In this document: positions 1 through 1,500 of the stretch, piece by piece
Position numbering within the stretch: the first letter of the stretch is position 1
How the letters are laid out: every line of letters begins with the position of its first letter
Assembly (NCBI GenBank): GCA_000004985.1
Contig: GG739387.1
DNA from: Naegleria gruberi
Lineage: Eukaryota
DNA length: 1,543 nucleotides
Strand: one strand, 5' to 3'
The notes under the pieces: model-generated
Seen by the model: the letters and a program-made list of their open reading frames with translations, nothing else
What the model was told of the DNA's origin: nothing
Database searches by the model: none
Made by a program: the position numbers and the translations under genes

Positions 1-1500
1 AATTCAACATCAGGAGGTAATATAGGAGGATTATTTACATCTATGGGAATGGGAGTATTAGATGATGATTTTACAATACCATCACAATCATTAAATAATA
101 ACAATAATCAAATGATTGCCGTGAATACATTTACAATACCATTATATACTCCTATATTTATTCAAAACAAATTAAATTCAAAATATTTATCAGTTCCTAA
201 TCAATTATCATCTCTCTTATCAACTAAACATTTATTTAAATCACAATTAGATTTATTAATGAATAATCAAAATATTAATCATAATGATACAAATAATCAT
301 TTTGGTTTATTAAATATTGATTTATCTGATCATCTTCATTTAAATAATAATACTAGTAATAATAATGATGATAATGATAATAATACTAGTAATGATAGTG
401 ATAGTAATATTTATGAAATTAATGATCAATCACCAACATCCGATCATCAACAACAACAACAACAACAATTTAATAATAATCAATCTAATCATCATCCTCA
501 TCACCATCAACAATCCAATCCTAATCATCAATTTAATAATAATTCTAATAATAATAATTCTAATAATAATTCTAATAATTCTAATAATAATTTATTAATC
601 ATGTCAGATAAACCCAATATAAAATTTATATATAGTGGAGAATCAAATTTTCATATTATTGAAAGTCAATCAGATGATTTTTTATATATAAATCATCATG
701 TATTAGATTGTAAAAATAATATAAATGTATATTTAAATGTATTAAATGATGAATTATCACAAAAATGGCATATAGGTAAATGTAATTCAACATCTATTTA
801 TTGTATTATTAGATCAATTGAAAATCCAAAATTAAAATTATATTATGATGGTTTAAATGTTTATTTAAAAGAAGAAATTGATAATATTGCTGAATTAAAT
901 GATGGTTTTTTATGGAAATTTATTTTACAAGAAATACCACAATATAAATATATGGAAAAATTATACATTTCACATCAAAAATATAAAACATTATCTAAAT
1001 TTAGTAGTAAATTATTTATAACTTGTTTACCTAATTTACAATTAGAATTATCATTTTTAAATTCTATTTTAACTGGTATATTTTTATCTTTAAATAATGT
1101 TGGTAATACTCAATATTTTAAAATTACTAATGATGGTATTATTGAATCTAAAATTAATAATAATTTAAATAATAATAAAAATAATTTAAATAATAAAAAT
1201 AATATAAATAAAAAAGATTTAAATAATAAAAATATAAATAATAAAAAAGATAATGATAAATTAGTAATAACATGGGATTTAGAAGAAAATAAAATAATAC
1301 TTGCTAAAAATGAATATTTAAATAATCAAAAATGGATATTTGTACCACACAATAAGAATCATAATTTATTTTTAATTCATTCTGTACATGATCCTATTTA
1401 TATATTACATACTTATAGAATTGAAAGACATTCTTTATTATGTATTAAAGAATTAGAATTAGATTCAAATGAAGATTATTATTGGTTAATAAGTGAATAA
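1..1500 (+). CDS. Single-exon segment of a protein-coding gene, 5'-partial at the window edge. It encodes a low-complexity-rich protein whose C-terminal region (from about aa 190) carries duplicated QxW modules that look like R-type lectin / beta-trefoil repeats. The function is unknown.
   Basis: Frame 1 is open from base 1 to the TAA at 1498-1500, and the first ATG is at 43 (MGMG...). The 42 nt before that ATG translate in frame to NSTSGGNIGGLFTS and are about 31% G+C. That fits coding sequence rather than intergenic spacer in a genome this AT-rich, so the CDS probably continues upstream. Codon usage is strongly biased to A/T-ending codons (AAT Asn, CAA Gln, TTA Leu, ATA/ATT Ile, AAA Lys), and this is consistent over about 1.5 kb. 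No competing ORF exists on either strand. No internal GTAAGT...AG intron-like interruption is visible, because the frame stays open and the protein reads sensibly throughout. Confidence 0.85.
   Translation, partial: NSTSGGNIGGLFTSMGMGVLDDDFTIPSQSLNNNNNQMIAVNTFTIPLYTPIFIQNKLNSKYLSVPNQLSSLLSTKHLFKSQLDLLMNNQNINHNDTNNHFGLLNIDLSDHLHLNNNTSNNNDDNDNNTSNDSDSNIYEINDQSPTSDHQQQQQQQFNNNQSNHHPHHHQQSNPNHQFNNNSNNNNSNNNSNNSNNNLLIMSDKPNIKFIYSGESNFHIIESQSDDFLYINHHVLDCKNNINVYLNVLNDELSQKWHIGKCNSTSIYCIIRSIENPKLKLYYDGLNVYLKEEIDNIAELNDGFLWKFILQEIPQYKYMEKLYISHQKYKTLSKFSSKLFITCLPNLQLELSFLNSILTGIFLSLNNVGNTQYFKITNDGIIESKINNNLNNNKNNLNNKNNINKKDLNNKNINNKKDNDKLVITWDLEENKIILAKNEYLNNQKWIFVPHNKNHNLFLIHSVHDPIYILHTYRIERHSLLCIKELELDSNEDYYWLISE
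343..597 (+). repeat. In-frame low-complexity coding tract (aa 101-185). It runs N/D/S-rich, then Q7, then a His-rich NHHPHHH segment, then N/S-rich, and is built from AAT/GAT/AGT/CAA/CAT/TCT trinucleotide repeats.
   Basis: Translation is NNNTSNNNDDNDNNTSNDSDSN...DHQQQQQQQFNNNQSNHHPHHHQQSNPNHQFNNNSNNNNSNNNSNNSNNN. (CAA)7 lies at 448-468. The cat/cac His cluster lies at 487-507. The (AAT)n tract interrupted by TCT lies at 535-591. Confidence 0.9.
1153..1260 (+). repeat. In-frame Asn/Lys-rich low-complexity insertion (aa 371-406) lying within the otherwise non-repetitive C-terminal region.
   Basis: Translation is INNNLNNNKNNLNNKNNINKKDLNNKNINNKKDNDK, encoded by AAT/AAA-dominated triplets. It is flanked by normal-complexity sequence: TNDGIIESK before and LVITWDLEE after. 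Confidence 0.85.

Follow-up and report, generated by a model that had tools for sequence, protein, structure and literature searches.

A putative tandem beta-trefoil protein of the ricin-B/HA33 type with homologues in Naegleria and Willaertia

Tandem beta-trefoils are present in two groups of carbohydrate-binding proteins that serve here for comparison. The HA33/HA1 chains of the botulinum progenitor-toxin complex (PDB 1ybi, 4lo0, 3win, 9qce, and 1qxm) are bacterial proteins of ~270-290 residues which consist of two such domains and bind HA17 and galactose. The two trefoils of HA33 are joined by an alpha-helix, and HA33/A binds galactose and lactose at ~1 mM at a site that lies in its C-terminal trefoil and includes D263 and F278, with the D263A and F278A substitutions abolishing binding (PMC3795040). 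Ricin B and other type-2 ribosome-inactivating protein (RIP) B chains, which represent the R-type lectins (PF00652, CBM13), are likewise tandem double trefoils built of (QxW)3 sub-repeats. Single-trefoil lectins are found in fungi and Entamoeba, including CCL2 (PF21595), CNL, MOA, and the E. histolytica rhamnose-binding trefoil lectin (6ifb), and the fold also occurs in cytosolic actin-binding proteins of amoebae and animals, such as fascin and hisactophilin. Here we analyzed a stretch of DNA of 1543 bases (hereafter the window), whose single long open reading frame (ORF) had previously been proposed to contain two diverged copies of a QKW-centred module, possibly representing an R-type lectin or beta-trefoil repeat (hereafter the original prediction). 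Our results suggest that this region is likely the folded part of a protein with two tandem beta-trefoils of the ricin-B/botulinum-HA33 type.

The ORF occupies frame 1 of the plus strand (nucleotides (nt) 1-1500), with an open 5' end and a stop codon at nt 1498-1500, so that 499 residues are visible. Residue numbers below are frame-1 indices unless marked otherwise, and equal those of the original prediction, in which the first in-frame Met (nt 43) is residue 1, plus 14. The remaining listed ORFs of the window are short read-throughs of low-complexity DNA. The ORF protein aligns over its whole length, end to end, with four homologues, three of which were retrieved by a word-indexed search and one more when 1.84 billion cluster representatives were searched exhaustively with HMMER. 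These homologue clusters belong to Naegleria fowleri, N. lovaniensis, Willaertia magna, and one JGI metagenome contig, and are the only ones found among ~15 billion public proteins; a lenient search with E values up to 10 gave no further relatives, and neither this nor the exhaustive HMMER search gave remote relatives that could deepen the alignment. Identity to the window protein over conserved columns is 63% for the Naegleria proteins, 57% for the metagenome protein, and 41% for the Willaertia protein, and no match above 56% identity was present in the protein collection searched. A look for paralogues in dictyostelid genomes had been suggested, but none were detected in the databases searched and every detectable relative is heterolobosean. 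The protein is conserved among these organisms, and both QKW modules fall within the best-conserved blocks of the five-sequence alignment, in which Q254, Q443, and W445 are invariant in all five sequences and W256 is replaced by Phe in Willaertia.

Both modules are readily located in the protein. Module 1 (LNDELSQKWHIGKCNSTSIYCIIRSIENPKLKLYYDG) lies at nt 742-852 of the plus strand (residues 248-284, QKW codons at nt 760-768), and module 2 (KNEYLNNQKWIFVPHNKNHNLFLIHSVHDPIYILHT) at nt 1306-1413 of the same strand (residues 436-471, QKW codons at nt 1327-1335). In the numbering of the original prediction, module 2 covers residues 422-457, exactly as had been given there, whereas module 1 covers residues 234-270 instead of 233-268; the three DG motifs (YYDGLNVY, LNDGFLWKF, and TNDGIIESK) and Trp 242, 291, and 481 had been placed correctly, but the residues listed as W408 and W432 are actually W411 and W431. 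The modules do align, although not position by position as claimed, since one single-residue gap is needed before QKW, and the residue pattern written for the part following the Asn was shifted by one residue. From QKW through Pro, they can be superimposed without gaps over 24 residues, 7 of which are identical. Apart from these small numbering errors, the observation of two QKW modules is confirmed. In the double-trefoil interpretation, each trefoil would consist of three sub-repeats of ~40-50 residues (hereafter 1-alpha, 1-beta, and 1-gamma in trefoil 1, and 2-alpha, 2-beta, and 2-gamma in trefoil 2), each closing with a QxW-type core motif, and each QKW would mark the middle sub-repeat of one trefoil. 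The "two degenerate trefoils" that had been mentioned as one possible architecture are supported by our results. The ~190-residue spacing between the two QKW motifs, which had seemed too long for a trefoil sub-repeat, is explained because equivalent beta sub-repeats of two trefoils lie one whole trefoil apart (158 residues without a 31-residue insert). The two domains would most simply have arisen when an ancestral trefoil was duplicated. In each QKW, Gln and Trp would contribute to hydrophobic core packing in the barrel and cap and would not themselves be ligand contacts. This core-packing motif supports the fold and says nothing direct about sugar binding.

Comparison of a family profile of the C half (nt 988-1497) with the PDB revealed a match to Clostridium botulinum HA33/HA1, a double ricin-type trefoil, with an E value of 6.1e-8 (35.9 bits), and further matches to type-2 RIP B chains (E 0.015-0.1). 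The C half is therefore homologous to HA33 at the profile level. Each HA33 chain was matched by HMMER in three stretches shifted in register, a pattern to be anticipated for one repeat fold matched against another, and the best-scoring of these stretches is found in the N-terminal trefoil of HA33 (residues ~50-122). The second QKW (as NQKW) aligns on NQYW, NQKW, and AQYW of HA33, and the C-terminal YW on its last QxW. All sub-threshold Pfam matches are also located in the C half and all are to trefoil families, namely CCL2-like, RicinB_lectin_2, Ricin_B_lectin, and CARDS-D2_trefoil. CCL2-like (PF21595) was matched by all four members scanned (best E 0.0067 there) and gave the best E value overall with the Willaertia C half (1.1e-4), at scores of 13.6-17.8 bits for the window and 22.7 bits for the best member (the Willaertia C half) against a cut-off of 27 bits. 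The best scores over family members were 13.1 bits for PF00652 (cut-off 29; E 0.11) and 16.4 bits for PF14200 RicinB_lectin_2 (cut-off 25.6), the latter being the family carried by the HA33 fragments retrieved. Thus, the proposed match to a trefoil-family hidden Markov model (HMM) is significant for the PDB profile search (HA33), but all Pfam families stay below their cut-offs, and significant profile likeness to established ricin-type members was observed for the C half only. The protein is a divergent new member of a known and very common fold, distantly related to the ricin-B/HA33 class of tandem trefoils, and fits no Pfam family.

Structure prediction, which had been recommended as a check, produced models that match beta-trefoils only, though with low confidence (mean predicted local distance difference test (pLDDT) scores of ~39-44). 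AlphaFold2 gave a mean pLDDT of 38.7 for the full 499 residues with the five-sequence alignment, and of 44.4 for a 312-residue construct without both low-complexity stretches (full-length homologues in the alignment). In both models, prediction was best for the segment from QKW module 1 to FLWKF (pLDDT 60-82) and for a conserved N-terminal motif, with block pLDDT values of 72 and 83; the N half was the better-predicted half in both, and the low-confidence construct model contains 12 strands in the N-terminal motif and N half. In Foldseek searches, both AlphaFold models retrieved beta-trefoils only, with HA33 chains ranking first (E 3.7e-7). Approximately 320 columns of the 312-residue construct were aligned to the 272-286-residue HA33 (identity ~12-18%); therefore, both halves are matched to the two trefoils of HA33. 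The root-mean-square deviation from HA33 is high, which is consistent with a different inter-domain orientation. A trefoil fold of the N half, a split first sub-repeat, and a linker helix are all supported by these low-confidence models. Taken together, the HA33 match, the retrieval of beta-trefoils by the models, and an internal repeat that exceeds shuffled controls at the profile level (see below) support a beta-trefoil or R-type-lectin-like repeat. Two outcomes had been named beforehand as evidence to the contrary, namely that trefoil families would give no HMM or structural match and that the repeat would not score above shuffled sequences; neither occurred.

With regard to function, a non-catalytic binding module is the most likely role of the protein, and by analogy with its nearest sequence relatives, its ligand would most likely be a glycan. 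A serious rival is a non-glycan role, in which the same double beta-trefoil would serve as a protein-binding adaptor, an actin-binding protein, or a protease inhibitor. Precedents exist for each of these roles, including the N-terminal trefoil of HA33 (for HA17), fascin and hisactophilin (for actin), and the fungal inhibitors cocaprin and clitocypin. A canonical sugar site combines Asp on the second strand of a sub-repeat with a stacking aromatic on the third, and none of the sub-repeats examined retains the full set: in the HMMER alignment, D263 and F278 of HA33 correspond to H470 and L485 in the window protein, and by-eye alignment places Ala435 at the expected stacking-aromatic position of 2-beta, both of which weigh against sugar binding. 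A non-sugar function may also be favored by the fact that the best HMMER stretch falls on the N-terminal trefoil of HA33 whereas the galactose site is in its C-terminal trefoil, as well as by the lack of a signal peptide in the homologues. Nevertheless, all sequence-level matches are to lectin-type trefoils (HA33, RIP B chains, CCL2-like, and Ricin_B families), the Asp equivalent to D263 is present in three of the four homologues (Asn in Willaertia; the F278 equivalent is Leu or Phe), and 2-beta keeps D426 and N442-Q443-K-W445, that is, the D...NQxW arrangement. Moreover, signal peptides are also absent from many trefoil lectins of the fungal cytoplasm, which reduces the weight of that argument. 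On balance, we regard a non-carbohydrate function as somewhat doubtful, although it deserves to be kept in view. The N-termini of full-length homologues are hydrophilic, with no signal-peptide-like hydrophobic stretch in a crude hydropathy test, so classical secretion of the protein is improbable; with regard to ligand binding and cellular location, these are the readings that we infer.

Another alternative is that only the C half is a ricin-type trefoil, the N half being a beta-rich domain of other descent whose QKW likeness resulted from convergence or chance. It is here that several results weigh against two trefoils: the N half has no match of its own in PDB or Pfam in the sequence-profile searches, no Pfam trefoil family attains its gathering score, the hhalign probability between N half and C half is 27%, and most pairs of putative sub-repeats are individually not significant. 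In addition, Foldseek scores include amino-acid as well as 3Di terms, and the HA33 match could therefore be driven by the C half. For the window sequence alone, the unbiased best self-alignment is not significant either (43 vs 36 +/- 6; reached by 29 of 200 shuffles), although the pre-selected module pair does exceed its shuffles (32 vs 18.5 +/- 3.7; reached by 14 of 2000). However, a different picture emerged at the profile level, where all repeat tests used profiles of the five family members (the window and four homologues). The top local hhalign alignment between the N-half and C-half profiles was the same QKW pairing (DCKNN...SQKWHIGK...SIENP on DLEEN...NQKWIFVP...SVHDP; score 27.3, E 6.5e-4), and this score was reached by only 1 of 300 column-shuffled N-half profiles (mean 12.8, standard deviation 7.3). 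Under relaxed settings, the alignment was collinear over 103 columns and continued through the next sub-repeat, placing NDGFLWKF onto NEDYYWLI (FLWKF against YYWLI). When six putative sub-repeats were cut from the family alignment, only 1-beta vs 2-beta clearly reached significance (score 27.2, E 4.9e-6), and the remaining pairs were weak, though several of them are in register; hhalign of the family alignment on itself returned the trivial identity alignment alone. Thus, a repeat score above shuffled controls, as anticipated in the original prediction, was not obtained from the unbiased self-alignment of the single sequence but was obtained from family profiles. Considering these profile-level results, the better prediction of the N half with its 12 strands, the exclusive matching of the models to trefoils, and the Foldseek columns that extend over both domains of HA33, we consider a trefoil restricted to the C half unlikely. 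Finally, it is hardly credible that there is no real feature at all, i.e., that the QKW likeness is a chance product of AT richness and biased composition (17.8% G+C, 4.8% G+C at third codon positions (GC3), skewed amino-acid composition, and a single-sequence score within reach of shuffles), because the modules are among the most conserved parts of a family whose members share 41-63% identity between genera, some of them from genomes with less bias, and the significant profile-level tests and PDB matches already contradict this reading.

For the double-trefoil reading, a domain map was built by combining conservation, strand pattern, and the HA33 alignment (all features on the plus strand). 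The conserved N-terminal motif (NTFTIPLYTPIFIQNKLNSKYLSV, nt 124-195, strands PIFIQN and YLS) would form the first part of sub-repeat 1-alpha. Within it (NTFTIPLYTPIFIQNK..YLS), all five sequences share N42, T43, F44, P47, L48, P51, I52, I54, Q55, N56, and K57. It is located ~135 residues upstream of the folded region, shows strands in both models, and probably supplies the first two strands of trefoil 1. A low-complexity linker rich in N, Q, H, and S (nt 217-594, ~126 residues) follows inside 1-alpha, marked by alignment gaps and no conservation; the homologues have ~45-110 unalignable residues here, the pLDDT is ~25-30, and AAT, CAA, and units of 9-21 nt are repeated in tandem and in frame at nt 343-601. 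Trefoil 1 thus appears to be split, with the N-terminal motif giving the first strands and the low-complexity insertion separating the rest. The trefoil 1 body (nt 601-936) would comprise the second part of 1-alpha (nt 601-666, strands IKFIY and NFHII), 1-beta (nt 667-786, ending in SQKW), and 1-gamma (nt 787-936, ending in FLW), with W-position residues F217 (nt 649-651), W256 (nt 766-768), and W305 (nt 913-915). An alternative register of 1-alpha, derived from a weak 1a/1c alignment and taking IKFIY as second strand and FLY as the QxW motif, was rejected as it leaves 28 residues before QKW, which is too short. The inter-domain linker (PQYKYMEKLYISHQKYK, nt 937-987) contains a predicted short helix, QYKYMEKL (DSSP, residues 156-163 of the deletion construct, low confidence).

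Trefoil 2 (nt 988-1497), the ricin-B/HA33-like domain to which the HA33/HA1, RIP B-chain, and sub-threshold Pfam matches belong, would be composed of 2-alpha (nt 988-1155, ending in QYF at nt 1111-1119, followed by NDG), 2-beta (nt 1249-1356, with NQKW, QKW at nt 1327-1335), and 2-gamma (nt 1357-1497, with YYW at nt 1477-1485). Between 2-alpha and 2-beta lies a 31-residue N/K-rich insert (nt 1156-1248) that forms an alignment gap, and in-frame tandem repeats with periods of 15, 18, and 33 nt are found at nt 1155-1259; the insert is a recent expansion within a loop of trefoil 2, because it is absent from all four homologues. On this map, module 1 corresponds to the end of 1-beta (strand KWHIGK) plus the first two strands of 1-gamma (YCIIRS and LKLYY), and module 2 to the end of 2-beta (NNQKWIFVP) plus the first two strands of 2-gamma (LFLIHS and IYILHT). 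The QxW-type motifs are SNF, QKW, and FLW in trefoil 1 and QYF, QKW, and YYW in trefoil 2, with full QKW in two of six and the other four degenerate. The W-position residues (F217, W256, W305, F373, W445, and W495) are invariant in the family with the exception of W256, and their spacing of 39, 49, 68 (across the inter-domain linker), 41 (31-residue insert removed), and 50 residues shows a trefoil period of 39-50 residues once the insert and linker are allowed for.

Some additional features of the window and its homologues were also observed. Codon use in the window is strongly biased, with 96 of 98 Asn residues encoded by AAT and 55 of 58 Leu residues by TTA. The poly-N and poly-Q tracts and this codon use might suggest a dictyostelid source, but the Willaertia orthologue is equally extreme in composition (G+C and GC3 contents of 15% and 5%, respectively) and the databases searched gave no dictyostelid homologue, so that a heterolobosean origin would be more economical. 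Directly after the stop codon, a unit of 13-14 nt (TAATTATATTATT) is present in approximately three tandem copies in the 3' flank (nt 1498-1541), with 93-96% matches in TRF. The first five bases (nt 1-5, AATTC) represent half an EcoRI site; together with the short record of 1543 bases and its 5'-open ORF, this would fit a cloned EcoRI fragment, a cDNA insert, or a short contig. The neighborhoods of the homologues (a 275-kb Willaertia contig and the metagenome contig) are eukaryotic, containing EFL1, PP2C, DEP, and Roc/Ras-type genes. A PP2C-type phosphatase gene is found near the homologue in both the Willaertia and metagenome contigs (L001 1109-2434 and L002 2906-4150; Pfam matches weak or faint), a proximity that may be a coincidence without functional meaning. 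No N. gruberi orthologue was among the matches of the protein searches, while N. fowleri and N. lovaniensis each have one; it may have been lost, be unannotated, or be too divergent. Metagenome scans with a protein pattern and with an exact 40-mer from the window gave no match, nor did scans of NCBIfam, PHROGs, and Rfam, and a literature search on the homologues' locus tags found nothing.

An uncharacterised family that has no Pfam annotation and includes a protein of the brain-eating amoeba N. fowleri is thereby given a fold assignment and a domain map. If glycan-binding, the protein would be a candidate factor in adhesion or in recognizing prey or host. The tolerance of this fold to insertions is illustrated by a trefoil that a long low-complexity stretch apparently splits. 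Otherwise the case is ordinary, as beta-trefoils are among the commonest binding folds and divergent members without a family are to be expected. A much bolder proposal, which we consider improbable in its entirety, is that these proteins represent an undescribed family of non-secreted double beta-trefoil lectins, so far seen only in vahlkampfiid heteroloboseans, including the pathogen N. fowleri, with clostridial HA33 as the closest detectable sequence relatives. Were this true, it could imply an old gene transfer between bacteria and amoebae or a shared role in adhesion or glycan recognition, and the first trefoil would tolerate a disordered insertion of 45-130 residues inside a sub-repeat.

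Compared with the known systems, the window protein most closely resembles HA33/HA1, with which it would share a similar size (~270-290 residues), two tandem beta-trefoils, a short joining helix, QxW motifs in register, and the LV[IL]TW[DN]...NQxW pattern of 1-beta. It differs from HA33 in the low sequence identity, in the replacement of the galactose-site residues D263 and F278 by His and Leu, and in being encoded by a eukaryotic gene with low-complexity insertions and a first trefoil split by a long linker; the homologues lie outside any ha operon or HA17-HA70 context, their neighbors being ordinary eukaryotic genes. The tandem arrangement of (QxW)3 sub-repeats is also that of ricin B and the RIP B chains, whose profile matches to the family are weak and below the Pfam cut-off; unlike in ricin B, only two of the six sub-repeats of the window protein have a full QxW, and there is no signal peptide and no attached A chain. 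CCL2, CNL, MOA, and the Entamoeba lectin resemble the family as trefoils without signal peptides from phagotrophic or soil eukaryotes, and CCL2-like is the best Pfam match of every family member, but these lectins are single-trefoil proteins, the scores are below the cut-off, and conservation of the sugar site is not demonstrable. Fascin and hisactophilin are cytosolic, and fascin also has tandem trefoils, but four of them; neither shows sequence-level similarity to the window protein, and hisactophilin is not in the match lists.

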